From a virus: a stretch of 64,000 nucleotides of DNA. The stretch covers positions 64,001-128,000 of the IMG/VR virus record IMGVR_UViG_3300043418_000120. The stretch is one strand, 5' to 3'. Shown piece after piece: positions 4,694-51,533 of the stretch (position 1 is its first letter; each line of letters begins with the position of its first letter). The position numbers were made by a program, and so were the translations under genes. Below the pieces are notes generated by a model. It was not told the origin of the DNA. It saw nothing but the letters and a program-made list of their open reading frames with translations, and ran no database searches.

Positions 4694-4951
4694 ATGTCGC
4701 ACGAATTTGACAAAGAACAACACTCTAAACGTATCCATCAAAAGGAAACGGTACTCGAGAAGAAGATGAGACTCGCGAAAGAGTTTCGTCATGAACATGC
4801 CCTAAAGAATCCACATCGATATCATAAGGCTTCGCTGTTTAACTGCGGTGATGCAAACTGTGTGATGTGTATGAATCCTCGTAAAGCATTTGGAGAAAAG
4901 ACAATGCAAGAACGTAAGTTCGAGCAGACAACAAAGTGGACAGATGAGTAA
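4694..4951 (+). CDS. Hypothetical protein with Cys cluster
   Basis: CGDANCVMCMNPRK. Confidence 0.7.
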   Translation: MSHEFDKEQHSKRIHQKETVLEKKMRLAKEFRHEHALKNPHRYHKASLFNCGDANCVMCMNPRKAFGEKTMQERKFEQTTKWTDE

Positions 4952-5501
4952 CTTTATTTTTATTGAGCGCAATATTGATGTAGCACCAATCCTGAAACAG
5001 GTTTTAGATAACCCGCAGGATTGGTCTGCTGTTTCGGAGTATGAGAGTATTGGTGGTGATCATAAACCACCTGGATTCTTGCCTCTAATTATGGCGGTCG
5101 TTGAACCCAACGCCGATCCTAAAAATGCCGAAGCACTTCAACAAACACCTCTGTTCAACAAGTATGATCAGGTGTTGCGTTTTATTGCGTCAAGAGGAAT
5201 TAAGAAACTCGCACGAGCAGCCTTCTTCAAGTTGGCTGTTGGTGCTTCTGTCACTCGTCACATCGACGAAGGAACTTACTACTTGACTAAAGATAGATAC
5301 CACTTGTCCTTACAAGGTAGGTATCTATACGAAGTTGATGGTGAGGAACATATTATTGAGCCAGGAACATTTTTCTGGTTTGATAATAAGAAGTATCATC
5401 GGGCAGTTAATATTTCTCCCGATACTGATAGGATTACGTTTGTGTTTGACTCGCATCACTCGCCGACTAATCCGCATCATTTAGTGAAAGATTTATTATG
5501 A
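4944..5501 (+). CDS. Aspartyl/asparaginyl beta-hydroxylase-like 2OG-Fe(II) dioxygenase
   Basis: HID, RYHL, WFDNKKYH, DRI.FVFD. Confidence 0.8.
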   Translation: MSNFIFIERNIDVAPILKQVLDNPQDWSAVSEYESIGGDHKPPGFLPLIMAVVEPNADPKNAEALQQTPLFNKYDQVLRFIASRGIKKLARAAFFKLAVGASVTRHIDEGTYYLTKDRYHLSLQGRYLYEVDGEEHIIEPGTFFWFDNKKYHRAVNISPDTDRITFVFDSHHSPTNPHHLVKDLL

Positions 5502-6260: not shown

Positions 6261-6920
6261 ATGAAATTGAGTAAAGAAACCCAAGAGATTTTTAAGAACT
6301 TCGCTCACATCAATGCGAATTTGATGTTGCGTACAGGTAATAAAATTTCTACTTGGACTGAGAACAAGACGATTATCGCAGATGTGACTCTGCCTGAAAC
6401 ATTCCCACAAGACTTTGGCATCTATGATGTTAACGAATTCTTGGGTGTATTGAGCTTGTTCAACGACCCAGAGTTGACCTTCAACAACGACGTAGTTGTT
6501 ATCAAGGAAGGTAAGAACCAAATCAAGTACAAGGCAGCTGAGGAATCTACTTTGAAGACTCCAACAAAATCAATCGTGTTCCCAGAAGCAGAAATCAATT
6601 TCTCTTTGACAGCTGGCGATCTTCAACACATCATCAAGTCTGCTGGTATCCTGAAAGTCAATGACGTTTCGTTCATCGGCGATGGCAATACTTTGACAGC
6701 TTTGGTTGTTGACAAGAAGAACCCATTGACAAACAAATTTGAAATTGATGTTGGTACTACCGATCGCACTTTCACTGCCAACATGAAGATTGAGAACTTC
6801 AAGATGTTGCCAGGAGCATACGATGTTTCTATCGCTCGTATGAAAATCTGTCGCTTTAAAGCAACAACAAGCTCGTTGGTTTACTACGTTGCGGTTGAGT
6901 CTGATTCTACATCAGAATAA
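6261..6920 (+). CDS. gp45: Sliding clamp
   Basis: MKLSKET..IFKNFA.IN, FGIYD.NEFL, YYVAVE; position before the clamp loader. Confidence 0.95.
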   Translation: MKLSKETQEIFKNFAHINANLMLRTGNKISTWTENKTIIADVTLPETFPQDFGIYDVNEFLGVLSLFNDPELTFNNDVVVIKEGKNQIKYKAAEESTLKTPTKSIVFPEAEINFSLTAGDLQHIIKSAGILKVNDVSFIGDGNTLTALVVDKKNPLTNKFEIDVGTTDRTFTANMKIENFKMLPGAYDVSIARMKICRFKATTSSLVYYVAVESDSTSE

Positions 6921-6936
6921 ATAGACTGCTCATATT

Positions 6937-7215
6937 ATGAAGACCGTGAAAGAACTCGACGGTCGGCTCTGGCGTGAGCCGATCCTCGATGTATGGAATA
7001 CAACTCTTTTTGGTAAACAGTTGAAGACTTTCGTTTGCAGAACTTGTAAAGAGAAAGCCTACGTGTCCGAAGCGTATAAGTGCTCAACACGCAAGAGTGG
7101 TTACCGTCCTTACCATGCTTCATGCTGGAATAAGTACAACGGCAAATCGTTCTCGCGTTTGTTTGAAACACCAAAAGAGCCAGAACCAGTGGCTACCCTT
7201 GATTATTTTATTTGA
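6937..7215 (+). CDS. Small Cys/His protein with C-terminal clamp-binding-like motif
   Basis: CRTC...HASC; ends TLDYFI. Confidence 0.65.
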   Translation: MKTVKELDGRLWREPILDVWNTTLFGKQLKTFVCRTCKEKAYVSEAYKCSTRKSGYRPYHASCWNKYNGKSFSRLFETPKEPEPVATLDYFI

Positions 7216-7226
7216 AAGATTATACT

Positions 7227-8168
7227 ATGAGTCGCGAAGAATTTCTGTGGTGCGAAAAGTATCGCCCACAAACCATTGATGATTGTATCTTGCCTCAACA
7301 GGTCAAGGACACATTTAAGCAGTATATCCAAGGTGGACAACTGCCAAACTTTATCTTTTCAGGAAGTGCTGGCGTAGGTAAAACTACGGTGGCTCGTGCG
7401 TTGTGTAACGAACTCAGCGCGGATTACTTGTTTATCAACGGTTCAGAAGAAAGAGGTATCGATGTCCTGCGTACAAAAATCAAGAGCTTTGCCTCGTCTG
7501 TTAGTCTCACCGAATCAGGTGTCAAAGTCGTCATCCTCGACGAAGCCGACTACCTTACCCCAGACACCCAAGCAGCTTTGCGCGCTTTTATCGAAGAATT
7601 TTCTAACAACTGTCGATTCATCCTTACTTGTAACTTCAAGAACCGAATCATCGCACCTTTACACAGCCGATGCGCTGTAATCGACTTCAAAATCGAGAGT
7701 AAAGACAAACCTAAGATCGCAGCATCATTCTATCGCCGTGTCGTTGACATTTTGGCCAAGGAATCCGTTGAAGCTGATCAAAAGGTCGTTGCGAAGGTTG
7801 TAGAGACGTTTTTCCCCGATTTTCGTCGCGTTTTGAACGAACTTCAGCGTTACAGCGTATCAGGTCAAATTGATGCTGGTATTCTGGCTAATATGTCTGA
7901 TGAGTCTATGAAGGAACTTGTGGGCTACTTGAAAGAGGCTGACTTCAGCGCGGCACGCAAGTGGGTTGCTCGTAACTCCGACATTGACACTTCTGTATTG
8001 TTCCGTCGTCTATATGACACAGCTTCTGACTTCTTAGAAACACAATCTGTCCCAGTGATGATTGTTATTTTAGCTGACTACCAGTATAAGGCTGCTTTTG
8101 TTGCCGATGCTGAAGTCAATAACGTAGCTGCGTTGACTGAGATTATGATGCAATGTAAATTCAAGTGA
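7227..8168 (+). CDS. gp44: Clamp loader large subunit
   Basis: EKYRP, GSAGVGKTT, LDEAD, LHSRC. Confidence 0.97.
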   Translation: MSREEFLWCEKYRPQTIDDCILPQQVKDTFKQYIQGGQLPNFIFSGSAGVGKTTVARALCNELSADYLFINGSEERGIDVLRTKIKSFASSVSLTESGVKVVILDEADYLTPDTQAALRAFIEEFSNNCRFILTCNFKNRIIAPLHSRCAVIDFKIESKDKPKIAASFYRRVVDILAKESVEADQKVVAKVVETFFPDFRRVLNELQRYSVSGQIDAGILANMSDESMKELVGYLKEADFSAARKWVARNSDIDTSVLFRRLYDTASDFLETQSVPVMIVILADYQYKAAFVADAEVNNVAALTEIMMQCKFK

Positions 8169-8175
8169 GGTTGTC

Positions 8176-8559
8176 ATGACCCCATTTGACTTTATCAACG
8201 CAATTTGCGAGAACAAGAATAAGGACTTGATCAAAGAGCCACAGGCAGAGAAAGACTACAAGGCATTCATTATCAACCGTGGGCTTGCGTATTATTACGA
8301 TACGGTTCTACAAGCCAACACGATGAATTATCATCACCACATTCCGAAAGATTGGCAATTTTCGTATTTGCTAAATAGCATTACCAAGAAGAAGCGTCGC
8401 ACTGCGTGGGAAAAGAAAGACACAAAGAGCGATCACTTGGAACTCGTTATGCTACACTATGATTATAGTAAGCGTAAAGCAATGGCTGTTCTAGACATTC
8501 TAACAGAAGAGCAATTGGCTATGATAAAACAAAAATACGAAAAAGGTGGAAGAAAATGA
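8176..8559 (+). CDS. gp62: Clamp loader small subunit
   Basis: PFDFINAI, FIINRGLAY, position; ends KGG. Confidence 0.9.
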   Translation: MTPFDFINAICENKNKDLIKEPQAEKDYKAFIINRGLAYYYDTVLQANTMNYHHHIPKDWQFSYLLNSITKKKRRTAWEKKDTKSDHLELVMLHYDYSKRKAMAVLDILTEEQLAMIKQKYEKGGRK

Positions 8560-8975
8560 CTGTTGAGACCGTCTACTATGACTGGACGCCAGAAAGCATG
8601 CTCGAAGTGACTCTCCCTGAACCTGACAATTTCTTAAAGGTTAAGGAAACACTTACGCGCATCGGAATTGCGTCTCGCAAAGAACATAAATTGTACCAGA
8701 GCTGTCACATCCTGCATAAGCAAGGTAGATATTTCCTAGTCCATTTCAAAGAGCTGTTTGCTTTGGATGGTAAGGAATCTAACTTGACTGGCAATGATGT
8801 GGAGCGTAGAAATACCGTTGCGGTGTTGCTTCAGGATTGGGGTCTTTTGAAGATCGTCAATATGGCTGAAGCAGAACCTCAAGCATCTCTGTCGCAAATC
8901 AAAGTGCTATCCTTCAAAGAGAAGCACGAATGGGAACTTGTTCCTAAATATAACATTGGCAAGAAGAAGGCATAA
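8556..8975 (+). CDS. regA: Translational repressor RegA
   Basis: FLKVKETLTRIGIAS, LYQSCHILHKQGRY..VHFKELF. Confidence 0.97.
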   Translation: MTVETVYYDWTPESMLEVTLPEPDNFLKVKETLTRIGIASRKEHKLYQSCHILHKQGRYFLVHFKELFALDGKESNLTGNDVERRNTVAVLLQDWGLLKIVNMAEAEPQASLSQIKVLSFKEKHEWELVPKYNIGKKKA

Positions 8976-12808: not shown

Positions 12809-15313
12809 ATGGAATTTTACACAAACGTATTTCCACTTGGTAATAAGCTATGTGTGCGCGGTGTCAAGAATGGCATCCCATACATGGACAAGATCGACTT
12901 CAACCCAACATTATATGTTTCTTCGAAGACTAAGAATGCTGGCGAAGTTCATCACACATTGGATGGACAGGCTGTTTACGCAATTCAGCCAGGATCTATT
13001 CGAGAAACGAAAGATTTCCTTGAGCGTTATAAAGATGTTCAAGGTTTCAACGTATTTGGCAATACCAACTTTGCCTACCAATACATCTCTGACAACTATC
13101 AGTCTGAGATTAAGTATGACAAATCGCTAATCAAAATCACATCGATCGACATCGAAACTTCTACTGAAGAAGGCTTTCCCAATATTGAGACTGCCAATGA
13201 AGAAGTGCTTCTGATCAGTATGATGGATAATACTACTAAAGAGATTCATGTCTTTGGTAAGAGTCCATACACAGGTAACAAGGAAGTTATCTTTCACCAC
13301 TGCGAAAATGAAGCAGCCCTACTGTTGAATTTTATCGACTTCTGGAAAGAGAACTATCCTGATGTTGTTACTGGTTGGAACATTAACTTCTTCGATATTC
13401 CGTACTTGATTCGTCGAATCATGGTTGTTCTTGGTGATCAAGCTGCGAAACAGTTGTCGCCTTGGAATGTTCTCTATGAGCGTAAGATCAACTCGCGTGG
13501 TCGTGAAGAACTTTGTTATGATATCGCAGGTATCTCTGCGCTTGACTATCTTGACTTGTACAAGAAGTTCACATACACGATGCAAGAATCATATAAACTT
13601 GATCACATCGCCTTTGTTGAGCTTGGTGAGAACAAGCTAGACCACTCTGAGTACGAAACCTTCAAGGACTTCTATACTTACGGTTGGAAGAAGTTCGTTG
13701 ACTACAACATTCACGACACTAAGTTGGTTGACATGTTGGAAGATAAGATGAAGTTGGTTGAGTTGGCTATCGTTATGGCGTATACTGCTCGCGTAAACTA
13801 TGAGGACGTGTTCTCTCAAGTTCGTATGTGGGATACCATCATCTATAATCATTTGAGAGCCAAGGGAATTGTTATTCCTAACAAGACTCACAACGAGAAA
13901 GATGCTGTTATCGAAGGCGCATATGTTAAGGATCCGCTGGTTGGCATGCATGACTGGGTTGTGTCTTTCGACTTGAACAGTCTGTATCCTCACTTGATTA
14001 TGCAGTATAACATCTCACCAGAAACGATGGACGCTAACTACAAGCACATCGGTGGTGTAAACTATTTCCTTGAGCATGCTGAGACTGGTGGATATCACAA
14101 CCTGAACCTTTCTTGTACTGCCAACGGCTGGTGTTATACGAAAGAGCATAAGGGTTTCTTGCCTGAGTTGATGGAAAAGATGTACATCGATCGAAGCAAA
14201 GCCAAGAAGCAAATGTTGAAGATCCAGCAGGATTATGAGAACACCAAGGATAAGTCTCTGGTAAATGAGATCTCTCGCTTGAACAACCTTCAGATGGCTT
14301 TGAAGATTGCTTTGAACTCAGCTTATGGTGCGTTGGCCAACCAGTATTTCCGTTACTACGACAAGCGTATGTCTGAGGGCATCACGTTGTCTGGTCAGTT
14401 GTCTATTCGTTGGATTGCTAACAAGTTGAACGGATACTTCAACAAGATGCTCGGAACTGACAAGGATGACTTTGTTATTGCGGTTGATACTGACTCTGTG
14501 TACTTGCGCTTTGGTCCATTGATTGATAAGTTGTTCACGAAGGAAGACCAACTCGACAAAGATAAGATCGTCAAGTTCATCGATAAGATTTGCGAAGATA
14601 AGCTACAGCCATTCATTGATAAACAGTATCAAGAGTTGGCCGATCGTCAGAATGCCTTTGCTCAGAAGATGATCATGAAGCGCGAAGTTATTGCCGACCG
14701 TGGTATCTGGACTGCTAAGAAGCGTTACGTTTTGAACGTACACAACTCTGAGGGTGTTCAGTACGCTCAACCCAAGATGAAGATTATGGGTCTTGAGATG
14801 GTTAAGTCATCGACGCCTCTGGTTGTTCGTGACAAGTTGAAAGAGGCGATGAAGATTGTTATCAAGGGTGATCAACTTGCTCTGCGTAAGTTTATTACTG
14901 ACTACAAGACCGAGTTCTTCAAGCTGTCGATTCCTGAGATCGCATTCCCTCGTGGTGTCAACAACATGAAAGAATATGCTGACGCTGGTAAGGTATATCG
15001 TAAGTCAACGCCTATCCATGTTCGTGGTGCTTTGATGTACAACCATATGCTCAAGCAGAAACAACTCGAGAATAAGTATCAGCCTATCAACGAAGGCGAT
15101 CGTATCAAGTTTATCTACTTGCGCGAACCCAACACACTACACGAAGATGTGATTAGTTTCACAACTGAAATTCCAAAGGAATTTGATTTGGATAAATACG
15201 TTGATTACGAGAAACAATTCAACAAGGTTTTCTTGGATCCTCTGGCTGCTATCATGGGCGCAATCTCATGGACGATCGAGGACGAAGCGACTCTTGATGA
15301 CTTCTTCGCGTAA
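12809..15313 (+). CDS. gp43: Family B DNA polymerase
   Basis: DIET exonuclease motif, SFDLNSLYP, KIALNSAYG, DTDS, KKRY; ends TLDDFFA. Confidence 0.98.
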   Translation: MEFYTNVFPLGNKLCVRGVKNGIPYMDKIDFNPTLYVSSKTKNAGEVHHTLDGQAVYAIQPGSIRETKDFLERYKDVQGFNVFGNTNFAYQYISDNYQSEIKYDKSLIKITSIDIETSTEEGFPNIETANEEVLLISMMDNTTKEIHVFGKSPYTGNKEVIFHHCENEAALLLNFIDFWKENYPDVVTGWNINFFDIPYLIRRIMVVLGDQAAKQLSPWNVLYERKINSRGREELCYDIAGISALDYLDLYKKFTYTMQESYKLDHIAFVELGENKLDHSEYETFKDFYTYGWKKFVDYNIHDTKLVDMLEDKMKLVELAIVMAYTARVNYEDVFSQVRMWDTIIYNHLRAKGIVIPNKTHNEKDAVIEGAYVKDPLVGMHDWVVSFDLNSLYPHLIMQYNISPETMDANYKHIGGVNYFLEHAETGGYHNLNLSCTANGWCYTKEHKGFLPELMEKMYIDRSKAKKQMLKIQQDYENTKDKSLVNEISRLNNLQMALKIALNSAYGALANQYFRYYDKRMSEGITLSGQLSIRWIANKLNGYFNKMLGTDKDDFVIAVDTDSVYLRFGPLIDKLFTKEDQLDKDKIVKFIDKICEDKLQPFIDKQYQELADRQNAFAQKMIMKREVIADRGIWTAKKRYVLNVHNSEGVQYAQPKMKIMGLEMVKSSTPLVVRDKLKEAMKIVIKGDQLALRKFITDYKTEFFKLSIPEIAFPRGVNNMKEYADAGKVYRKSTPIHVRGALMYNHMLKQKQLENKYQPINEGDRIKFIYLREPNTLHEDVISFTTEIPKEFDLDKYVDYEKQFNKVFLDPLAAIMGAISWTIEDEATLDDFFA

Positions 15314-15338: not shown

Positions 15339-15548
15339 ATGGAAAATACTACTGTGGCAAAGAAGCCACCTTTCAAACTGATTTGCGAAAAGCACGGAGA
15401 AATCCCAGATGACTACGTGTTCCGTGTGAATATGCCCGACTTCGGCTATGAACAAAAGACTTACTGTCTTGTATGCGCCATTGAGTATCTCTCGATGATT
15501 GCTAACGAAGTTACCTATGTACCAAATGATGAGGAGAAATCAGAATGA
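15339..15548 (+). CDS. Small zinc-binding protein
   Basis: CEKHG...YCLVC; AGGA RBS. Confidence 0.65.
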   Translation: MENTTVAKKPPFKLICEKHGEIPDDYVFRVNMPDFGYEQKTYCLVCAIEYLSMIANEVTYVPNDEEKSE

Positions 15549-16606
15549 GCTTTTTAAAAGATATTGTAAAAGAACTGGATAATGAATATGCGGGACTCGC
15601 TGATGATGGTGTGGTTGGTGATACTGATACTTTTATCGACACTGGTTCTTATACTCTCAATGCCCTGCTATCTGGCAGCATCTATGGTGGTTTACCTGGC
15701 AACAAAGTCACAGCTCTGGCTGGTGAGTCGTCGACTGGTAAAACCTTCTATGCTCTGGGTATTGCGAACAATTTTCTCCGCACTGATCCAAAGGCTGGAA
15801 TCATTTACTTCGAAACCGAAGGTGCCCTGAACCGCGAAATGCTCGAAGAGCGTGGTATCGATACCAAGCGTTTCATGATTGTGCCAGTTTCGACAGTACA
15901 GGAATTCCGTACTCAAGCTACTAAGGTTCTTGATTCGTACGAGAAGACTCCTAAGAAAGATCGACCACCATTGATGTTCTTCTTGGACTCATTGGGTATG
16001 TTGTCAACTTCAAAAGAAATGGAAGACATCGCTGAAGGTAAAGACACTCGCGATATGACACGTTCTCAATTGATTCGTGGCGCATTCCGTGTGTTGTCAT
16101 TGAAGTTGTCTAAACTTGATGTCGCGATGGTTGTTACAAACCATACCTACGCTGTCATCGGTTCTTACATGCCATCCCGTACTATGGGTGGTGGTGATGG
16201 TTTGAAGTACGCAGCTTCTTCGATTGTGTTCTTGTCTAAGTCTCAAGACAAAGACGGTACTGAAGTTGTTGGTAACATCATCAAGTGTAAGGTTGAGAAG
16301 TCTCGTTTCACTCGCGAGAAGTCAATGGTTGAAACGAAGCTGTCGTTCACCAAAGGTTTGGATCGTTACCATGGCTTGACCGATCTGGCTGTTGAAGCTG
16401 GTATCTGGAAGGCGCAAGGTGGACGTATCGAAGTTCATGATGGACGTAAGGTGTTCGGTAAGGCTATCGCTCAACGCCCAACAGAATTTTTTACCAAGGA
16501 AATCCTAGATAAACTTGACACATACTGTAAATCCAAGTATAATTATGGTAGCGACGAATCTGTTGTTACTGATAATGATATTGAGGATGAAGTAGATGCG
16601 AATTGA
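15545..16606 (+). CDS. uvsX: RecA-like recombinase
   Basis: AGESSTGKT, DSLGML, NHTY, MGGG.GLKYAAS. Confidence 0.96.
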   Translation: MSFLKDIVKELDNEYAGLADDGVVGDTDTFIDTGSYTLNALLSGSIYGGLPGNKVTALAGESSTGKTFYALGIANNFLRTDPKAGIIYFETEGALNREMLEERGIDTKRFMIVPVSTVQEFRTQATKVLDSYEKTPKKDRPPLMFFLDSLGMLSTSKEMEDIAEGKDTRDMTRSQLIRGAFRVLSLKLSKLDVAMVVTNHTYAVIGSYMPSRTMGGGDGLKYAASSIVFLSKSQDKDGTEVVGNIIKCKVEKSRFTREKSMVETKLSFTKGLDRYHGLTDLAVEAGIWKAQGGRIEVHDGRKVFGKAIAQRPTEFFTKEILDKLDTYCKSKYNYGSDESVVTDNDIEDEVDAN

Positions 16607-17990
16607 AGACCAAATCTTTGGCAACTTAATTAGTCACGAGGAGTACGCAAGAAAGGTTATGCCTTTCTTGTCCCCTGACTATTTTACAGATAGAACCGAC
16701 CGAGTTATCTTTGAAGAACTTGCTCGGTTCTTCACCAAATACAATGCTGCTCCTGCGAAGGACGTTTTGAAGATCGAGGTAGCAAACCGCACCGATGTGA
16801 CTGAAGACCAAGTCAAGGCTGCGAACAATATCCTCGACTCTGTTCAAGCAGAGAAGACTAACATTGACTGGATTACAGATTCGACTGAGAAATTCTGTAA
16901 AGACAAGGCTGTTTACAATGCTATCATTAACTCCATCCGAATCATCGATGGTAAAGACAAGAATCATAATGCTGACGCTATTCCTGACCTTCTGTCTAAA
17001 GCTCTCGCTGTCACTTTTGATTCTCATGTTGGCCATGATTACTTGGAAGATTCTGACTCTCGCTATGACTTCTATCATCGCGTTGAAGAAAAGATTCCTT
17101 TCGACTTGGATATGCTCAACAAAATCACCAACGGTGGTCTGAGTAAGAAAACCCTCAACGTAATTCTAGCTGGTACTGGTGTTGGTAAGTCGCTGGCGAT
17201 GTGTCACTTCGCAGCTGCTAACTTGATGCGCAGTAAGAACGTTCTCTACATTACCATGGAAATGGCTGAAGAGCGTATCGCTGAACGTATTGATGCGAAC
17301 TTGCTAGAATTGTCTATGGATTCTTTGAAGATGGTTGAGAAACGTGTCTTTGATTCACGCCTTGACAAACTTCGCAAGAAAGATCCAGGCAAGTTGATTG
17401 TTAAAGAATATCCAACTGCCTCTGCGCATTCTGGTCACTTCAGAGCGTTGATTGAAGAACTGAAGATGAAACGTAACTTTATCCCTGATATCATCTACAT
17501 TGACTACTTGAACATCTGTTCTAGCCAACGTATGAAGATGGGTGGCTCTGTAAACTCTTATACATATATTAAAGCAATCGCAGAAGAACTGCGTGGCTTG
17601 GCAGGTGAGTACAAGGTGCCAATTGTTACGGCTACTCAAACGACTCGAGGTGGTTTCGCAAACAGCGACCCAGGATTGGAAGATACTTCTGAATCGTTTG
17701 GTTTGCCAGCGACAGCTGACTTGATGCTTGCGTTGATTAGCACAGAAGAACTTGAACAAATGAACCAGATTATGGTGAAGCAGTTGAAGAACCGTTACTC
17801 TGACCCGAACTTCTATAAGAGATTCGTAGTTGGTGTTGACCGTAAACAAATGAGACTTTATGATGTTGAAATGAGCGCGCAAGCCAATATCTCTGATCAA
17901 GGTGAGATTGACGACGATGTTCCCGTTTTCGACAGAGGCAACTTCGGCAAAAGAATCAAGACTGAGGGATTCAAAGGATTTAAGGCATAA
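16596..17990 (+). CDS. gp41: Replicative DnaB-like helicase
   Basis: AGTGVGKS, DYLNI, TATQTTR, SESFGLPATAD, KQLKNRY. Confidence 0.97.
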   Translation: MRIEDQIFGNLISHEEYARKVMPFLSPDYFTDRTDRVIFEELARFFTKYNAAPAKDVLKIEVANRTDVTEDQVKAANNILDSVQAEKTNIDWITDSTEKFCKDKAVYNAIINSIRIIDGKDKNHNADAIPDLLSKALAVTFDSHVGHDYLEDSDSRYDFYHRVEEKIPFDLDMLNKITNGGLSKKTLNVILAGTGVGKSLAMCHFAAANLMRSKNVLYITMEMAEERIAERIDANLLELSMDSLKMVEKRVFDSRLDKLRKKDPGKLIVKEYPTASAHSGHFRALIEELKMKRNFIPDIIYIDYLNICSSQRMKMGGSVNSYTYIKAIAEELRGLAGEYKVPIVTATQTTRGGFANSDPGLEDTSESFGLPATADLMLALISTEELEQMNQIMVKQLKNRYSDPNFYKRFVVGVDRKQMRLYDVEMSAQANISDQGEIDDDVPVFDRGNFGKRIKTEGFKGFKA

Positions 17991-18001: not shown

Positions 18002-19381
18002 ATGGTTAAAGTAATTGTAGCAGATAAAATTCATGATTCAGAACACTTGCTCGGCATGTTTGTCGACGAGTCGCACTACGATGTGTTAATTGAAGAAGAC
18101 ACAGATTGTTATCTACCAGCAGATTGTGACGCTGCTTCGCAGGCAAACTGTGAAACCGATCGCGACTGTTCTAATTGTTCGAAGGGTATGAACGAGGCGC
18201 GTATCGCCTTCAAATTCCGTAAGAACTTCTTCACCAAAGAAGAACAAGATAATGCATATGCTGGTCTGCGCGAAGCTGCTGTTCGTACCGAAAACCGTGG
18301 ACTTGCTTCTGGTATCAAAGAAGGTACATCCGTAACAGGCGAAGGTCGTGAGTGGGTTACCAACTATCAAGAAGAAATGATTCATGCGATCCTGAGTGCT
18401 CGTACTGAGTCCTTGATTGAAGGTGATGTGATTGAAGAAGTTCGTTCACGTTTCCCAACCCAAGCCGATCGTCTAAAGGCTTTGGGCTCTGGTAAGAACA
18501 ACGTATGGGTTATCTCGCGTTTCCGTAACAAGTTCAACTTCGACGAGTTCATCGACAGCATCATTCCTCTCGATCGCGAGAAGCGTGCTACTGAGATGGA
18601 AGAAGTCATGAAGATGATCAGTGAGACATCTTATGGCAACCCTGTTGACTCAGGTATCGCTGGTTGGTACGATCGTTATCCACGTATCCCTTATGGTCGT
18701 GCGACAACTTACACTCGTGACAACTTCGAGAAATTCCAGTTGGCTTACCCATTCCTTCAAACTCTTGCGAAGGGGTTTAAAGACTTGTTGCCATGGCGTT
18801 ACAACAACCAGATGGAAGCTGCTAAGAAACTTGACCCACGTTACCTTGTGCCTGGAACACCATTCACCACAATTACCGTGAACAAGACTTTCCGTACAGC
18901 TGCTCACCGTGATGCTGGTGACTTGGATTCTGGTTTGTCGAACTTGTTGACTCTATCTAACGATGGTCGTTACACAGGTGGCTACTTGATTTTCCCAGAG
19001 GTTCGCATTGCTGTTAATGTGCGTCCAGGCGACTTGCTGTTGGTTAACAACCACGAAGTTATCCACGGTAACACGCCAATCGTATGTGAGGAAGGTTCTG
19101 AGCGCATTTCTTTGGTATGTTATTTCCGTGAGAAAATGCTTGAGCTTGGCACTCACGAATATGAAGATGCTCGCTATCGTTACGTCGAATCTCGTCGTCT
19201 GAATAAAGAACACCCAATGTGGAAGAAACTCTGGAATGGTGTTTCTCCAGGCATGTGGGATGACGCTGAATGGTACGATTTCCTTCGTAAACAACCGAAC
19301 GGCGACGCAATGGTAGCAAAGTACCACCCTGACGCGAACAACGCCGACTTGGGCGACTTGGGAGATGAATGGTTCGCTTGA
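18002..19381 (+). CDS. TET/JBP-family 2OG-Fe(II) dioxygenase (5-methylpyrimidine hydroxylase)
   Basis: FTTITVN..FRTAAHRDAGD (HxD), GGYLIFPE, HGNTP (distal His), ERISLVCYFRE (2OG-binding Arg). Confidence 0.85.
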   Translation: MVKVIVADKIHDSEHLLGMFVDESHYDVLIEEDTDCYLPADCDAASQANCETDRDCSNCSKGMNEARIAFKFRKNFFTKEEQDNAYAGLREAAVRTENRGLASGIKEGTSVTGEGREWVTNYQEEMIHAILSARTESLIEGDVIEEVRSRFPTQADRLKALGSGKNNVWVISRFRNKFNFDEFIDSIIPLDREKRATEMEEVMKMISETSYGNPVDSGIAGWYDRYPRIPYGRATTYTRDNFEKFQLAYPFLQTLAKGFKDLLPWRYNNQMEAAKKLDPRYLVPGTPFTTITVNKTFRTAAHRDAGDLDSGLSNLLTLSNDGRYTGGYLIFPEVRIAVNVRPGDLLLVNNHEVIHGNTPIVCEEGSERISLVCYFREKMLELGTHEYEDARYRYVESRRLNKEHPMWKKLWNGVSPGMWDDAEWYDFLRKQPNGDAMVAKYHPDANNADLGDLGDEWFA

Positions 19382-19406
19382 CTTTTATCCTATAATCAGG
19401 TATAAT
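19378..19406 (+). promoter_or_regulatory. Sigma70-type promoter
   Basis: TTGACT-17-TATAAT. Confidence 0.85.
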
Positions 19407-19429
19407 TGACTATATTTTAAGGAATCACA

Positions 19430-20290
19430 ATGCGATCGAATTATTGGTCATGTTCTAAATTTGCTGACTGGCTTCGTGGTACTGACAAGCCACCAGCAGC
19501 AACTTCGGAAGGCTGGCGCTCATGGCGCCTTGCCTCTAAGAAGACACACCCAATCCGTCATTGGATCGTTGAAGAAGGTCTTGACAATCTTCAACGATTC
19601 GTCTATTGGCCAGCTGACAAGTTGAACGACATTCGTTACTACATCAACAACCGTTGGGTGGCACGTTCGCATTCACTGACAGCACATCCTCGCGATATCA
19701 AGCCAGGATCTTGGTGCGATGTTGGTAACCGTTTCTTGCCTTGTATGTTCAATGAGTTGGTTGACTTTGTTGAAGTTGAATCAGCATGGATGCATGTTGT
19801 TTGGAACGACGAGAATCGCGACAAGTACAATGTTCCATTCTGGCGCAAGCAATGGTGGACACGTTGGGGAATGGTATGGCGTTGTAAGGAAGCTGGTCTT
19901 GATCATTTGAACTGGGCTGCTCAGTTGCGTTTCGATGATGAGTTCATTGAACAAGACAGCCCATCATACGGCAAGTTCACACCACAAGCCATAAATGCTC
20001 AGGAAATTCTAAGCCTTTACACTTGGTGGACTGAGAAGCGTCCAGCTCGTCCCGATCCATATGAAGTGTCAGGTTGGTCAGCATTGTGCGCTGAGCGTAG
20101 AGCTGCTCGTCGCGCCGAAACTGGCGACAGCAAGGATGACTTCTTTATCTCCGACGAGAAGACACCAGAAGCTAGACAGAAAACAACTGCTGCTCTAGAT
20201 GCGCTACATATGTTAGAGGCAGAATATGAAAAAGAAGACGAAGAAATGATGATTCGTCTAATCAAAGTACGACACGGTCTCTGGACTTAA
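19430..20290 (+). CDS. Conserved Trp-rich phage hypothetical protein
   Basis: YWSCSKFADWLRG...LFNELVDFVE-like motif...MIRLIKVR. Confidence 0.8.
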   Translation: MRSNYWSCSKFADWLRGTDKPPAATSEGWRSWRLASKKTHPIRHWIVEEGLDNLQRFVYWPADKLNDIRYYINNRWVARSHSLTAHPRDIKPGSWCDVGNRFLPCMFNELVDFVEVESAWMHVVWNDENRDKYNVPFWRKQWWTRWGMVWRCKEAGLDHLNWAAQLRFDDEFIEQDSPSYGKFTPQAINAQEILSLYTWWTEKRPARPDPYEVSGWSALCAERRAARRAETGDSKDDFFISDEKTPEARQKTTAALDALHMLEAEYEKEDEEMMIRLIKVRHGLWT

Positions 20291-20302
20291 TAAAGGAAAA
20301 AC

Positions 20303-21652
20303 ATGAAGATTATGATGGTAATGCACACCTTCAACAATTTTGGAGGTATTATCAACCACTGTGAACATCTAGTCGCAGGGTTGAAAGAGCTTGGTCATGA
20401 GGTTACGTTCGCGTATCTGAAAGGCAACAAGACAGTTCGACCAGTTGAGATTCCAACTGAGTTGAAGGAAGGTTATGAGATTGGTGTTGGCACAGGTTAT
20501 CCTGTACACCAAGGCGATGGTTGGATCGCACCTTATTACTCATACAAAGTTCAAGAATCGATTGACAAATTTGTTGTAGATGCTAACCAACACGATTTGG
20601 TTATTTGGCAGTCTATCTTTGGCTTCAAGAATAAAGACACCGAGAAGTCTCTAATGTGGTTGCCGATGGTTGAGAAAATCACTGCCAAGCAAGTCCCAAT
20701 TATTCATGATGCTAACTTGAAGAAGCTGTACCCTTGGATCCAGTTGTTTGAGAAACACTTTGCTGGTCTGGCATGCGTTCACCCAGCAGCTTATGACTCA
20801 GCTGACTTTATGGATGTTCCACGTGCTCTGATTTTGAACCCACAGGACATTGCTAATATTCCCCAGCCACCCTTGTTTTCGAACCAAGAAAACAAGGTTT
20901 TGTCTATCCAGACATTCAAGCGTTGGAAACGTGTTGATGATTTGATTCGTGCTGTACCACACATGAAAGAGGTTAAGACTCTGGTTGGCGGTTATGGTAT
21001 TGAAGCAGCTTACATGATGTCCAAGGACAAATGTAAGGACGAGTACTACTGCACTTCGCAGTATGACCCAGATCGTACCCCAGAGATGGATGGTAAGCGT
21101 ATTTGGCAAAACGCCGAGGAATCAGGTAACTTTGAGTACCTTGGATTTATCTCAGGAGCAAAGCGTGATGAAATTCTATCAACATCTAAGTTTTTGGTTG
21201 ACCCCTCTTGGTCAAATACTTTCGGCGAGCATTTCAACCGTGTGGTTGTGGACGCTATGCGCATTGGTGTCGTACCAATTGCCATAAACTTTGGTGTCTC
21301 TGACAACGAAGAAGGTCAAGGCGTCGTTCTGAAGGCAGGTATCAACTACTGTATGATCAAGAAAGGCTCTACTCCAAAGCAGTATGCCGACAAGATTAAA
21401 GAGTTTTGTAACATGTCTCAGGCTGATTACCAACAAATGCAGCTAAATAACTATGAACTGATTAAACAGTTCGATCGAAAGGTAATTGCTCAGCATTACA
21501 TCGACTTGGCTATGGGTAAGGAGACAGGCTATCTGAACGAACTTAGAACCAAGACGAACCATGACCCAAATATCCCTAGAGTTGCGCGAAACATGTTTGA
21601 AGAACACTTCGAACAACCCAGCGCACAGTCTTTGGACGATTTCTTCGGGTGA
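20303..21652 (+). CDS. GT-B fold glycosyltransferase with C-terminal clamp-binding motif
   Basis: GGIINH...LKELGHEV, FKRWKRVDDLIRA, YLGFIS, EHFNRVVVDAM; ends SLDDFFG. Confidence 0.85.
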   Translation: MKIMMVMHTFNNFGGIINHCEHLVAGLKELGHEVTFAYLKGNKTVRPVEIPTELKEGYEIGVGTGYPVHQGDGWIAPYYSYKVQESIDKFVVDANQHDLVIWQSIFGFKNKDTEKSLMWLPMVEKITAKQVPIIHDANLKKLYPWIQLFEKHFAGLACVHPAAYDSADFMDVPRALILNPQDIANIPQPPLFSNQENKVLSIQTFKRWKRVDDLIRAVPHMKEVKTLVGGYGIEAAYMMSKDKCKDEYYCTSQYDPDRTPEMDGKRIWQNAEESGNFEYLGFISGAKRDEILSTSKFLVDPSWSNTFGEHFNRVVVDAMRIGVVPIAINFGVSDNEEGQGVVLKAGINYCMIKKGSTPKQYADKIKEFCNMSQADYQQMQLNNYELIKQFDRKVIAQHYIDLAMGKETGYLNELRTKTNHDPNIPRVARNMFEEHFEQPSAQSLDDFFG

Positions 21653-24847: not shown

Positions 24848-25311
24848 TGATCTCATTCAAACAATACCTAGAAGAAGCCAAGCGTGGCTTGTGGGATAAC
24901 ATCCACGCAAAGCGCGAACGTATTAAGAACGGTTCAGGCGAGCGTATGCGAAAGCCAGGAAGTAAAGGCGCACCAACCGCTGCGAACTTGAAACAAGCTG
25001 CAGAATCGGTCGAGCACGAATGCGAGTGCGAAGAGAAGTGCGGATGCGATACTGTTCTTGAAGACGCTAAGGGGTACAAGAACCCAACAGGAGGTCTTAC
25101 CCAGAAAGGCAGAGACCATTATAATCGCGAAACTGGCGGAAACTTGAAAGCGCCAGTCACAACTCCTCCTTCTAAGCTAAAGAAGGGTAGCAAAGCTGCT
25201 AATCGCCGTAAGTCATTCTGCGCTAGAATGTCTGGCGTAGAAGGTCCAATGAAAGATGACAAAGGTCGTCCAACCCGCAAGGCTCTTGCTCTAAGAAAGT
25301 GGAACTGCTAA
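24847..25311 (+). CDS. Basic putative internal head protein (DUF6321-like)
   Basis: MISFKQYLEEA; GGLTQKGR...RRKSFCARM...ALRKWNC. Confidence 0.75.
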   Translation: MISFKQYLEEAKRGLWDNIHAKRERIKNGSGERMRKPGSKGAPTAANLKQAAESVEHECECEEKCGCDTVLEDAKGYKNPTGGLTQKGRDHYNRETGGNLKAPVTTPPSKLKKGSKAANRRKSFCARMSGVEGPMKDDKGRPTRKALALRKWNC

Positions 25312-25925
25312 TGAAAAGATTTATCGACTATTTGTTCGAAGCTGCCGAGAAGCATCATGTGCTTGCGTTCGGTCGTATGAACCCAATCACTTCTGGTCAC
25401 GAGGCTGTTGTTAACAAGGTACACGATGTTGCCAAGAAACATAAAGCTGATCACACTGTTGTTGTTTCACATAGCCAAGACGCTAAGAAGAATCCTTTGA
25501 CTGGTGAACAAAAGGTTAAACATGCCAGCCGAGCATTCCCTGGAACAAAGGTGAAGTCTGCTAGCAAGGAACACCCTACAATCCTACACCATGCTGCTGA
25601 ACTACACAAGGCTGGCGTGCAACACTTACACGTTGTAGCTGGTTCTGACCGCCACCATGAGATGCATACACTGCTTCATAAATACAACAACGGCGAAAGC
25701 CATAAGCATGGTTCTTACCACTTCAAGTCTATCACAGTACACTCTTCAGGCGCACGCGACCCTGACGCTGAAGGAACAACTGGTATGTCTGCTAGCAAGA
25801 TGCGCGAACATGCTAGTAAAGGCGAGAAGGATAAATTCCATGCAGGCGCTCCATCAAAGATGAGCACTAAACACAAAGACGAAATGTATCATGAAGTAAG
25901 AAAGGGCATGGGGCACCATGACTGA
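25311..25925 (+). CDS. HxGH nucleotidyltransferase (cytidylyltransferase/NMNAT-like)
   Basis: FGRMNPITSGH, KNPL, VAGSDR, RDPDAEG..GMSASKMR. Confidence 0.85.
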   Translation: MKRFIDYLFEAAEKHHVLAFGRMNPITSGHEAVVNKVHDVAKKHKADHTVVVSHSQDAKKNPLTGEQKVKHASRAFPGTKVKSASKEHPTILHHAAELHKAGVQHLHVVAGSDRHHEMHTLLHKYNNGESHKHGSYHFKSITVHSSGARDPDAEGTTGMSASKMREHASKGEKDKFHAGAPSKMSTKHKDEMYHEVRKGMGHHD

Positions 25926-26918: not shown

Positions 26919-28811
26919 ATGAAAGCATATAGTCAGTTCCTAAAAGAGCTGCCTTCAAAGAAGGTAGTATTTGCGTATGGCGATTTTCAAGCGCCAACGA
27001 ATGGTCACGAACTTCTCATCAAAACGGTTGAGAAAGTTGCCAATGAGCAGGCTGTGCCTCATGTAATCTACACATCTCAGAAGACCCTTGCTGCTGATCG
27101 CAAGGCTCACTATCTGAAAAGAATGTTCCCAGAAGCCAATATCAAAGCTGCTGGGAACACACTCATTGAGGCAGCTAAAGACCTCAACAAGAAATACAAA
27201 AGCATCATTCTAGTTACTGGCGTTGACCAAGTAACTGAGTGTAAGAAGCTCCTAGAATCCAAAAACGGAAAAGAATATAACTTCGACACAATCACAGTAG
27301 TTTCTACTGGCGAGCGCGACGCTGATCTAGATACAACAGCCATCAAAGCTGCCAAGAAGGGCGATATTGAGTCATTCAAAGAAAGCCTTTGTCAGTCTAT
27401 CACATCAACCGATGCTATGCGCCTAATGAATGAGTTGAGAAGCGTTCACGATCTAGACCCAATTAAGCAAGATTTGAAGATCGCTACCGACTGGCTACGT
27501 GAGTCATATTTCCGTGGTGAGATCTATCAAATCGGCGACTTGGTTGAGTCGCAAGAAAAGACATTTGAAGTTGTTGATCGAGGTAGTAATTACCTTGTAG
27601 TTCTAGATGAGTCGGGAAAGACATTCCGCAAATGGCTCAAAGATATCCAGCCATCCACTTCTAACGACAGTATCGTTGAAAAACAAAACGATATCCTCGA
27701 AGCAACGAAGTGGTCTCCATCAGATAAAATCAAAGTAGCTAAGATTGTTGCTGGCGCACTAGGTGTTCAGAATCTAAACAGCACATCTAATCCAGAGCAA
27801 CTTGTTAACAACGCCCTGCGCTTTGTTCGTAACAAGCCAATGCGTCCAGAGTATGTTGCTATTCTAAAGAGAATGCTGCAGACTGCTAAGGAAGTTGGTA
27901 TTGATTTTGACGAGAAACTAATCCCACACAAAGTCGACGAAGCGCGCATGAGCGCAGCTGTTAAACTTCAGCGCGCATTCGAGCGCGAGCAAGAGAAGTC
28001 CGCAGCAAGCCGCAAGCGTGGCGAAGAATTGCTAAACCCAAAGAAACCAGAAGAGAAGAAGCCAGTCGCTGAGCATATCGTTAAGACTGGCTCAGGGTAT
28101 AAGCTGCTATCTAAGAAGACTGGTAAGAATCTTGGCACTGCTACAAGCAAGGCTGGTATTCTAAAGCGCGAGCGTGAAGTTGAATACTTCAAACACGTCA
28201 AAGAAGAAGCTGCCTTTGAAAAGGATGACGATATCCTAAAGGCAACTAACAACATCGACGATAACGCAAGAGTCTTCGACAGCGACATCTCTAAGATTAA
28301 AGAAATTGATCACGTCATCCACGCATATGACGACAAAGAACTTGCGTTTGTTGACCACGATACTGGTGAACACGTAGGTGATGTCCACGATGACGATAAG
28401 AAAACTGGCCAGCGTATTGAGCAGCCAGCAACTGAGACTGACGAATACCAAGGTTCTCGTTATGTCAAGGAAGAATACCTTGAAGAAGGCTTGAGTCGTA
28501 TGGAACGTATTATGCGTAAGCAACGTTTCATGAGAACTAAGTCAAAGCGCGAGCAGAGAGTTAAGATTGCTCTTCGCAAATCATCAAATATCATCACAAT
28601 GAGTAAACGCGCTCGACGCCTTGCTACTCATATGATCAAGACACGCATCCTGAGAAAAGATCCAGAGACTGCGTCGATCCCAGAAAAAGAACGAGTTGAG
28701 GCTCTTCTAAAGAAACGTCCGTTGTTGGTGAACCGTTTGGCTTCTCGCCTACTACCTAAGCTGCGTGAAGTTGAGAAGAACAGACTACGTCACCACAAAT
28801 ACACAAAATAA
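26919..28811 (+). CDS. Putative internal head protein with degenerate HxGH nucleotidyltransferase N-terminal domain
   Basis: MKAYSQFLKEL; YGDFQAPTNGH; GERDAD; RESYFRGEIYQIGD.V. Confidence 0.7.
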   Translation: MKAYSQFLKELPSKKVVFAYGDFQAPTNGHELLIKTVEKVANEQAVPHVIYTSQKTLAADRKAHYLKRMFPEANIKAAGNTLIEAAKDLNKKYKSIILVTGVDQVTECKKLLESKNGKEYNFDTITVVSTGERDADLDTTAIKAAKKGDIESFKESLCQSITSTDAMRLMNELRSVHDLDPIKQDLKIATDWLRESYFRGEIYQIGDLVESQEKTFEVVDRGSNYLVVLDESGKTFRKWLKDIQPSTSNDSIVEKQNDILEATKWSPSDKIKVAKIVAGALGVQNLNSTSNPEQLVNNALRFVRNKPMRPEYVAILKRMLQTAKEVGIDFDEKLIPHKVDEARMSAAVKLQRAFEREQEKSAASRKRGEELLNPKKPEEKKPVAEHIVKTGSGYKLLSKKTGKNLGTATSKAGILKREREVEYFKHVKEEAAFEKDDDILKATNNIDDNARVFDSDISKIKEIDHVIHAYDDKELAFVDHDTGEHVGDVHDDDKKTGQRIEQPATETDEYQGSRYVKEEYLEEGLSRMERIMRKQRFMRTKSKREQRVKIALRKSSNIITMSKRARRLATHMIKTRILRKDPETASIPEKERVEALLKKRPLLVNRLASRLLPKLREVEKNRLRHHKYTK

Positions 28812-35765: not shown

Positions 35766-35906
35766 ATGAGCGACGGTGGTAAAGGCGACAAGCGTCGACC
35801 AGAAGACCAAAAACAATGGGACAACGGATACGATCGTATCTGGGGTAACAAAAAGAAACAAGATGAACAGAAACCAATTGAAAGCGAACAACAAAATGCA
35901 AGTTAA
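35766..35906 (+). CDS. 46-aa conserved small protein MSDGGKGDKRRP...YDRIWG
   Basis: AGGAG RBS; GKGxxxRP...DRI(W/F)G pattern; not in ORF track. Confidence 0.65.
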   Translation: MSDGGKGDKRRPEDQKQWDNGYDRIWGNKKKQDEQKPIESEQQNAS

Positions 35907-36552
35907 ACTAATCTCCTTCTCTCAATCAGCACACGAAGCCGCGCACGACATGACCGAACTTGTTTCGTATTGCGCTCGCGTGAGCAACCCAAGCAACCAA
36001 TCGAATATGGAAACAAGCGAGAAGTTGATCAAGTACTTGATTAAGAATCAACACTGGTCGCCGCTCGAAATGGTAAACGTGTGTCTGGAGATTACAACAA
36101 CTCGTGATATCGCTCGACAGATTTTGCGTCATCGTTCATTCTCATTCCAAGAGTTTAGCCAGCGCTACGCTGATCCAACTAAAGACTTAGATTTCGTGAT
36201 TCGCGAAGCTCGCCTACAAGACACAAAGAACCGCCAGAACAGTATCGAAACTTCTGACGCTGAGCTGAATGTTTGGTGGGACGCCAAGCAGAAATTCATC
36301 ATCGATCACGTTAAGGCTATCTACGCCGAAGCTATCGAGAAGGGTATTGCTAAAGAACAAGCTCGTGCTATTCTGCCAGAAGGTAATACTGTGTCGCGTC
36401 TATACATGAACGGTACTGTTCGTAGCTGGATCCACTATATACAGTTACGCTCAGCGAATGGTACACAAAAAGAACACATGGACATCGCTAGAGTCTGCGC
36501 TCAAGTCATCGCAGAAGTCTTCCCACTGTCTGCGGAGTTCGTACAACAATAA
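35896..36552 (+). CDS. thyX: Flavin-dependent thymidylate synthase
   Basis: HWSPLE, RHRSFSFQEFSQRY, TQKEH. Confidence 0.95.
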   Translation: MQVKLISFSQSAHEAAHDMTELVSYCARVSNPSNQSNMETSEKLIKYLIKNQHWSPLEMVNVCLEITTTRDIARQILRHRSFSFQEFSQRYADPTKDLDFVIREARLQDTKNRQNSIETSDAELNVWWDAKQKFIIDHVKAIYAEAIEKGIAKEQARAILPEGNTVSRLYMNGTVRSWIHYIQLRSANGTQKEHMDIARVCAQVIAEVFPLSAEFVQQ

Positions 36553-50627: not shown

Positions 50628-51118
50628 TGAACCGTAATTTGAACTACATGCCAGAGATCCTAGACGCATTGACTAAGGATCCAAAGAAAGCAGCTGCATA
50701 CAAAGAGGACTTTGCTTTTAAGACCATCTTGAAGTGTGCTTTTGACAAAGACTATGCCTTTGCCTTGCCTGATGGAGCGCCACCATTTAAACCAGCTGAG
50801 CAGCCTTTGGGTATGACAACAGCTAACCTGCGTAGCGAAGCTCGTCGTTTCTACATCTTTACAAAGTTCAGTGATGTGCAGCAACGCCTTCGTCGTGAAC
50901 AATTGTTTGTTCAGATTCTTGAATCGATCCACCCTTCAGAAGCCAAAATCTTAATCGCTGTGAAGGATCAACAACTTGATGCTTTGTATCCAAAGATTAC
51001 GGCTGAATTCGTCAAGGCCAATTTCCCTGACGTATTGCCAGAAGGAACGGTGGTCGCCGAACCAGCAAAAAAAGCGCCAGTGAAGAAAGTAGCGAAGAGT
51101 GCAACAAAAGTGGATTGA
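50627..51118 (+). CDS. Conserved T4-like hypothetical protein (DUF6433-like)
   Basis: LP.G.PPFK...RRE.LF.Q.LE.IHP.EA. Confidence 0.75.
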   Translation: MNRNLNYMPEILDALTKDPKKAAAYKEDFAFKTILKCAFDKDYAFALPDGAPPFKPAEQPLGMTTANLRSEARRFYIFTKFSDVQQRLRREQLFVQILESIHPSEAKILIAVKDQQLDALYPKITAEFVKANFPDVLPEGTVVAEPAKKAPVKKVAKSATKVD

Positions 51119-51533
51119 TGCGTATTTGGACATGGCTGAGAGGTTCGCCCAACTCAGCTATGCCAAGCGACTCCAAGTCGGAGCAATTGTGGTCAAAGAA
51201 CATCGAGTTATCTCGATTGGGTATAACGGAACGCCCGAAGGCTGGGACAATGCCTGCGAATTCCAATACACTAACCCACAATCTAAAATCACTACTACGC
51301 ATACGAAAGACGAGGTGATTCATGCGGAAGCGAATGCGATTACGAAGCTCGCTCGCGATGGTCAGTCTGGTCGTGCTGCTGATTTATTCTGTACTCATGC
51401 TCCTTGCATTCAGTGTGCCAAGTTAATTCATGGCGCTGGAATTAAGAAGGTTTACTACAGGCACCAGTATCGCGATGACGCTGGTATAAAATTCCTTACA
51501 AAGGGCGGTGTAGAGGTCGTACAAAGTGCTTGA
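51099..51533 (+). CDS. cd: dCMP deaminase
   Basis: GYNG, HAEANA, PCIQC. Confidence 0.93.
   Translation: MQQKWIDAYLDMAERFAQLSYAKRLQVGAIVVKEHRVISIGYNGTPEGWDNACEFQYTNPQSKITTTHTKDEVIHAEANAITKLARDGQSGRAADLFCTHAPCIQCAKLIHGAGIKKVYYRHQYRDDAGIKFLTKGGVEVVQSA

Follow-up and report, generated by a model that had tools for sequence, protein, structure and literature searches.

The stretch of DNA analyzed here, referred to as the window, comprises 64,000 nucleotides (bases 64001-128000) of a 173,880-bp IMG/VR virus record, the genome of a T4-like phage with a completeness of 100% (CheckV). In its replication gene cluster, a gene for a TET/JBP-family dioxygenase starts 12 nucleotides past the end of gp41, and the second gene after it encodes a glycosyltransferase (GT) that ends in nearly the same peptide as the phage's own DNA polymerase, gp43. 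The original prediction, made from the sequence, had read these genes as a clamp-riding, post-replicative two-step pathway of DNA hypermodification. Here we describe the two enzymes and their C-terminal tails, and weigh this interpretation.

The dioxygenase and the glycosyltransferase

The first open reading frame (ORF) had been assigned to the 2-oxoglutarate (2OG)/Fe(II) enzymes because of the motifs TAAHRDAGD, HGNTP and ERISLVCY, all of which are found in it. A hidden Markov model search agreed with this assignment, as residues 235-377 matched Pfam Tet_JBP (PF12851) with an E value of 5.6e-26 and 91.2 bits (cut-off 34.9); the score was 93.8 bits in a six-frame search of the genome. The protein has the TET-type double-stranded β-helix fold, and its catalytic residues are intact: H302, D304, H355 and R368 align with the human TET2 motifs AHRD, HATTP and RISLVFY (iron and 2OG ligands), the three iron ligands are invariant in 47 dioxygenase homologs, and R368 is kept in 46 of the 47. 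With about 450 amino acids, the enzyme carries an extra N-terminal region of about 200 residues. The N-terminal cysteine cluster noticed earlier is present (residues 36-59). However, it lies in a variable insert modeled with low confidence (predicted local distance difference test, pLDDT, 47-63) that is missing from the ortholog of Stenotrophomonas phage DLP6, and a conserved zinc domain was therefore rejected as a feature of the family. In PHROGs, the dioxygenase belongs to phrog_24024, a group of unknown function; a second match was weak and bore an odd label. Another oxygenase, of the 2OG/cupin type (Asp_Arg_Hydrox, Cupin_2) and unrelated to TET/JBP, is encoded upstream of gp45 (window 4890-5501, +).

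The other predicted enzyme, a GT of the GT-B type ending in SLDDFFG, was borne out as well. It matched Pfam Glycos_transf_1 (E 6.9e-11, 42.4 bits, cut-off 26.4), and its structural model (pLDDT 91.3) shows the two-Rossmann GT-B fold of the retaining GT4 type. An enzyme with a retaining-type fold would probably make an α-glycoside and not true base J. The likeness of this fold to that of T4 α-glucosyltransferase (α-GT), a DNA enzyme, is high, and the two are structurally tied. Membership in the α-GT family (PF11440) was not found, as Pfam searched to an E value of 0.1 gave only Glycos_transf_1, Glyco_trans_1_4 and Glyco_transf_4, and the best BLASTP comparison with T4 a-gt was not significant (E 0.11). 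The GT may thus work like α-GT without belonging to its family. There was no sequence-level PDB match for the GT profile, no tblastn match for the GT in the phage collection and no function in PHROGs, and NCBIfam returned nothing useful. All 35 related loci that carry both genes have them on one strand with the dioxygenase first and the GT after it, in many cases with overlapping start and stop codons. A few kb past the GT, two proteins (window 25299-25925 and 26919-28811, +) bear the PHROG label "cytidyltransferase" (phrog_3041 and phrog_395) and have no Pfam match.

The C-terminal tails and the surrounding genes

In T4 and RB69, the C-terminal peptide of gp43 docks on the gp45 sliding clamp. 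The near-identity that had been reported between the ends of the GT (SLDDFFG) and of gp43 (TLDDFFA) amounts to five of seven residues, LDDFF. The pattern L[DE][DES][FL]F[GA] occurs twice in the 54,634 residues of the genome's ORFs, and both occurrences are the last residues of a protein, namely gp43 and the GT. A looser pattern adds the phage's gp55 late sigma factor, in which SLEVFF lies 12 residues before the end, and four internal chance matches. For comparison, T4 gp43 ends in SLDFLFG, and T4 gp55 has SLDFLYEAND. An acidic/hydrophobic C-terminal motif is thus common to the GT and to the phage's own gp43 and gp55, and as the latter two carry it at T4-like positions, the carriers include both classic gp45 clients. 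The tail motif is most likely the form that the T4 clamp peptide takes in this lineage. The phage also encodes the clamp itself: a profile of 29 gp45 orthologs matched, over the full length, both RB69 gp45 (1b77/1b8h, E 7.5e-44), for which 1b8h is a crystal structure with the polymerase peptide bound, and T4 gp45 (1czd, E 1.3e-42).

The tails were surveyed in 49 related IMG/VR loci fetched with the GT, using ORFs of at least 80 amino acids. The 108 that end in the motif, out of 1,194 such ORFs, comprise 42 dioxygenase, 37 GT and 29 polymerase orthologs and no other protein. The gp43 tail is kept as (S/T)L(D/E)(D/E)FF(G/A) in 29 related loci. In a large protein collection, the canonical tail is present on 115 of 120 dioxygenase homologs (identity at least 66%) and, with identity down to 55%, on 115 of 120 GT homologs. 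Within the GT alignment, L444 and F448 are conserved at 97% and 98%, and the preceding linker of 5-6 residues is hypervariable, with insertions and deletions (column entropy 2.4-3.0 bits). The last nine residues of the GT have a pLDDT of 51, and the tail stands at about 50 in both enzyme models; for the GT, such low confidence is expected of a flexible docking peptide. A repeated DNA element was rejected as the origin of the tails, since the codons for the shared residues are synonymous but differ between gp43 and the GT. The tail is therefore specific and selected rather than due to chance, and what has been conserved is the peptide, not the DNA.

The end of the dioxygenase, LGDEWFA, had been described as looser than the other two, and it is indeed a degenerate copy of the canonical tail: the nearest relatives have ..ADLDEFFA, and a 4-residue insert together with an F-to-W change has given ..ADLGDLGDEWFA here. 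Judging from these peptides, the GT appears to be a safer clamp client than the dioxygenase in this phage. When 50%-identity cluster representatives of the dioxygenase were compared, the tail was present on 21 of the 30 closest versus 4 of 120 distant ones, the latter mostly 5mYOXs of about 300 amino acids (Fisher p 6e-15). Many of the tail-less phage 5mYOX representatives of about 300 amino acids (P0282, P0288, P0318, P0362, P0374, P0377 and others) share a different C-terminus, ..ERAK.RK.GDPLY/W. The gene for one of these (L138:6001-6855) adjoins a TAGT gene on a siphovirus-like contig of 38 kb.

Two cultured T4-like phages, DLP6 and Caulobacter phage Cr30, encode dioxygenase orthologs with 44-46% identity, which are mis-annotated as "SNF2 DNA repair protein". 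The C-termini in DLP6 are ..TLDSFFA for the polymerase, ..TLGDFFV for the dioxygenase and ..DLSSFFN for the GT, a TAGT (PF20691). In Cr30, the polymerase ends in ..DLSSLFD and the dioxygenase in ..GATLF, and ..DLSKLF is found on a protein that only weakly resembles TAGTs (19.7 bits, under the cut-off of 27.5); the gene adjoining the dioxygenase encodes a tail-less amino-acid:DNA transferase (AADT; PF18724, E 1.3e-52). With such tails on a TAGT in DLP6 and on the weakly TAGT-like protein in Cr30, an unrelated GT family carries a tail matched to its lineage. Next to the DLP6 dioxygenase lies a gene for a 563-residue nucleotidyltransferase (L001:6274-7965), probably for sugar activation, and in Cr30 (L002:13293-14474) the module adjoins an annotated inositol-1-phosphate synthase.

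The gene between the two enzymes gave no tblastn match in the phage collection. Its family has 5,289 hits, which are phage hypothetical proteins without a Pfam domain and also occur on contigs larger than 250 kb. Of the 35 related loci, 11 have this gene at the junction between dioxygenase and GT, 6 have other small ORFs there, and in 18 nothing separates the two enzyme genes, which adjoin or overlap. With these three states, the junction is a hot spot of insertion, and the middle gene does not belong to the core of the module. We rejected the idea that its product, by way of an internal KDDFF as clamp motif, is a third member of the pathway, as the motif is not kept in orthologs and the gene is missing in 24 of the 35 loci.

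The locus as a whole had no nucleotide-level match in the phage collection (megablast), and the nearest annotated phages by gp43 are cyanomyoviruses, at only about 55% identity. Between gp45 and gp44, a Cys-rich protein of 92 amino acids (window 6937-7215, +) ends in ATLDYFI, a loose look-alike of the clamp tail. It gave nothing above the Pfam cut-off and no match in PHROG or NCBIfam, and it could be a further gp45 client.

Table 1. Genes and peptides of the module and of the replication cluster (window positions unless marked as genome positions)
Feature	Position	Strand	Remarks
TET/JBP-family (5mYOX) Fe(II)/2OG dioxygenase, probably a thymine hydroxylase	18002..19381	+	459 aa
Dioxygenase C-terminal peptide LGDEWFA	19358..19378	+	degenerate clamp-type tail
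Trp-rich accessory gene	19430..20290	+	286 aa; no Pfam, PHROG or NCBIfam match
GT-B (GT4-like, retaining-type) glycosyltransferase, proposed DNA glycosyltransferase	20303..21652	+	449 aa
GT C-terminal peptide SLDDFFG	21629..21649	+	polymerase-type, putative clamp-binding tail
gp43 family-B DNA polymerase	12809..15313	+	Pfam DNA_pol_B + DNA_pol_B_exo1
gp43 C-terminal peptide TLDDFFA	15290..15310	+	reference clamp-binding tail; counterpart of T4 gp43 ..SLDFLFG
gp45 sliding clamp	6261..6920	+	proposed docking partner; Pfam gp45-slide_C + DNA_PPF
gp44	7212-8168
gp62	8176-8559
RegA	8556-8975
UvsX	15545-16606
gp41	16596-17990
ThyX	35776..36552	+	PF02511, E 4.2e-42; genome 99944-100525
dCMP deaminase	51099..51533	+	PF00383, E 5.7e-23; genome 115108-115458
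gp55 late sigma factor	genome 31595-32179	+	outside the window

Substrate, recruitment and alternative explanations

In the window, neither a cytosine C5-methyltransferase nor a deoxycytidine monophosphate (dCMP) hydroxymethylase had been noticed, and this holds for the entire genome: PF00145 was absent from all six frames, and the ThyA family (PF00303) was not found either. As there is no ThyA-family enzyme, there is no dCMP or deoxyuridine monophosphate hydroxymethylase and no dCMP methylase. PF01555 and PF02086 (methyltransferases of the N6/N4 or Dam type) and ParB (ParB_N, PF02195) were likewise absent from the complete genome, and positive controls were detected in every search. The genome holds no source of 5-methylcytosine (5mC) or of 5-hydroxymethylated pyrimidines among these families, and, as in the case of a ParB-independent thymine dioxygenase, it encodes neither a C5-methyltransferase nor a ParB partner. 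The two nucleotide enzymes that had been recognised earlier, ThyX and dCMP deaminase, are both present, and the phage makes ordinary thymidine monophosphate. DLP6 and Cr30 also have no C5-methyltransferase. AADTs belong to thymidine hypermodification and act on derivatives of 5-hydroxymethyluracil (5hmU). Considering the missing C5-methyltransferase, ThyA and ParB, the presence of ThyX and dCMP deaminase, and the AADT link in Cr30, thymine is the likely substrate. The same reasoning has been used by Lee et al. (PMC8989533) and O'Toole et al. (PMC13229309); moreover, the activity of phage thymine dioxygenases has been shown experimentally, and a C5-methyltransferase is part of only 6% of 5mYOX pathways (PMC13229309). 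At the positions equivalent to TET2 N1387 and H1904, the dioxygenase has D307 and R376, a pair that might suit the N3-H and O4 of thymine. Thus, of the base-J-like route proposed originally (thymine to 5hmU to glycosyl-5hmU), the thymine part is likely to stand, but the product would not be base J proper given the retaining-type GT.

We consider it fairly probable that the dioxygenase and the GT constitute a two-enzyme post-replicative hypermodification module, probably acting on thymine, that is recruited by gp45 via polymerase-type tails. According to this model: the dioxygenase would act on DNA that is already synthesised and hydroxylate a pyrimidine, most likely thymine, at its 5-methyl group, yielding 5hmU; the GT would move a sugar from a host nucleotide-sugar onto the 5hmU hydroxyl, probably as an α-glycoside; and both enzymes, each bearing a gp43-type peptide, (S/T)L(D/E)(D/E)FF(G/A), behind a short flexible linker, would be recruited by clamps remaining on new DNA, so that nascent DNA would be modified at or just behind the fork. 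Base modification would then probably be coupled to the replication fork.

The same module and the same tethering could instead serve 5mC, made by the host or by an unrecognised phage methyltransferase, with glycosyl-5-hydroxymethylcytosine as the product. This would agree with the oxidation of 5mC by characterised phage 5mYOXs of clades A and B (PMC8256090), with the closest solved structures, all of which are 5mC enzymes, and with the DNA of DLP6, which is listed as resistant to restriction enzymes (PMC8228603) from a panel that included enzymes with C/G-only sites (PMC5349666). However, a 5mC substrate is unlikely, because neither this genome nor DLP6 or Cr30 offers a PF00145 enzyme, the other DNA methyltransferase families and a ThyA-type dCMP methylase or hydroxymethylase are missing from the genome, methylation by a host Dcm-type enzyme would yield sparse sites only, and both the AADT linked to the Cr30 ortholog and, possibly, the D307/R376 pair point to thymine.

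As for the tails, they might be real and selected and yet have a partner other than gp45, such as gp32, the helicase loader or host RNA polymerase, or might act as a turnover or localisation signal. In T4, α-GT binds gp45 without such a tail, showing that tail and clamp contact are separable. However, in this genome the motif is otherwise confined to gp43 and gp55, both classic T4 gp45 clients that have it in the same positions; the phage's gp45 is a full-length homolog of the clamp that was crystallised with the polymerase peptide; and in DLP6 and Cr30 the tail goes with that of the polymerase of the same lineage. With these findings, a different partner or a signal function is quite improbable. 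It is very improbable that the acceptor of the GT is a protein, a lipid or a small molecule rather than DNA, and that the adjacency to the dioxygenase is unrelated to its function, even though its Pfam family and most of its structural neighbours (PimA, HepE, BshA) use lipids, polysaccharides or small molecules and source databases label its homologs "cell wall biosynthesis". The GT follows the dioxygenase on the same strand in 35 of 35 loci with frequent start/stop overlap, 115 of its 120 homologs carry the polymerase-type tail, it is structurally tied with a DNA enzyme, T4 α-GT, and the equivalent place in DLP6 and Cr30 is held by TET-associated GTs with the same tail.

Several points weigh against a gp45-recruited thymine module. 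The dioxygenase tail of this phage has one added residue between the Leu and the aromatic pair in addition to the change from F to W, and its closest relatives end in DLSDFV; in this sub-lineage, the dioxygenase may therefore be less firmly tethered. Among the enzymes of clades C1 and D, some acted on neither thymine nor 5mC in E. coli (PMC8256090). The restriction resistance of DLP6 fits hypermodification, but as the panel covered C/G-only sites, a thymine-only modification would be no simple explanation if the resistance is complete. Beside the GT in the window, no gene for nucleotide-sugar synthesis was recognised. In T4, the share of α-glucosylation is set mainly by promoter strength and not by the gp45 contact (PMC13216743), and tethering therefore need not be functionally dominant. 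Finally, we infer the docking of the tails on gp45 from their motif identity with gp43 and gp55 and from their conservation. Overall, the original prediction is supported, as the two observations that could have spoken against it, a GT tail not conserved in homologs and, for the thymine variant specifically, a C5-methyltransferase elsewhere in the genome, were looked for and neither was made.

Significance and comparison with known systems

As the tail is found on 5mYOX, GT-B and TAGT-family enzymes across this clade, DLP6 and Cr30, the clamp peptide may well be a general, portable recruitment tag for DNA base-modifying enzymes in T4-like phages, a generalisation we hold only slightly more probable than its opposite. 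If our model is true, hypermodification would be written on nascent DNA by clamp-riding enzymes, the viral counterpart of PCNA-coupled maintenance methylation, and this would account for post-replicative modification being fast and complete enough to shield the DNA from host nucleases. Why phages use post- rather than pre-replicative hypermodification, and how the enzymes reach their sites, are open questions in published work (PMC13229309); for T4-like phages, a clamp-docking tail would provide a concrete, testable answer, namely recruitment by gp45 to fresh DNA. It would also widen the T4-type set of clamp clients beyond the polymerase and the late-transcription factors, and provide a simple sequence tag for finding DNA-acting enzymes among unannotated phage genes. 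As DLP6 and Cr30 are cultured, the idea is directly testable.

The 5mYOX plus GT type of pathway, phage thymine dioxygenases and the contact between a T4 DNA glucosyltransferase and the clamp are already published. Like the phage 5mYOX plus GT pathways described before, among them those with ParB-independent thymine dioxygenases (Burke 2021, PMC8256090; Pyle 2023, bioRxiv 10.1101/2023.12.21.572611; O'Toole 2026, PMC13229309), the present locus has a Tet_JBP enzyme adjoining a GT, no C5-methyltransferase and no ParB, and would work by post-replicative oxidation followed by glycosylation. However, the characterised enzymes have about 300 amino acids, compared with about 450 here, and both enzymes here end in a putative polymerase-type clamp peptide, which those papers do not mention. 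These surveys note polymerase, helicase, clamp-loader and gp45 genes only as co-occurring neighbours, and the "sliding clamp" of PMC13229309 is ParB. In the full-text literature searched (clamp binding combined with hypermodification, glycosyltransferase or dioxygenase), no description of a polymerase-type clamp tail on such enzymes was found.

In maintenance methylation of eukaryotes, DNMT1 binds PCNA through its PIP-box, and JBP1 of the trypanosome base J pathway is targeted by its J-binding domain, not by a clamp peptide. The DNMT1-PCNA pair resembles our model in that a short peptide brings a DNA-modifying enzyme to the replication clamp; however, enzyme, clamp and chemistry are unrelated, and the parallel is in logic only. 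With the base J pathway (JBP1/2 and JGT), the module would share the conversion of thymine to 5hmU by a TET/JBP enzyme and the subsequent glycosylation of the hydroxymethyl group. However, JGT has been described as a structural homolog of the phage GT-A enzymes (bioRxiv 10.1101/2023.12.21.572611) and base J is a β-glucoside (PMC13229309), whereas the GT here is a retaining-type GT-B enzyme.

Further parallels are found in T4 and RB69. T4 α-GT (1xv5, 1y8z) co-purifies with gp45 according to the passage of PMC13216743 that cites Sommer 2004. It differs from the present GT in its Pfam family and shows no significant sequence similarity to it; it ends in ..KEQFDIITK, without a gp43-like tail; and its substrate, 5-hydroxymethylcytosine, is a pre-replicative product of gp42, an enzyme that is absent from this phage. 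The gp45-binding peptides of T4/RB69 gp43, gp55 and gp33 (1b8h) share with the tails described here the acidic/hydrophobic (S/T)LD..F motif at or near the C-terminus, as do the phage's own gp43 and gp55. However, the consensus is LDFLF there and LD(D/E)FF here, and the T4 and RB69 peptides are on polymerase and transcription factors, whereas the tails described here are on predicted base-modifying enzymes.

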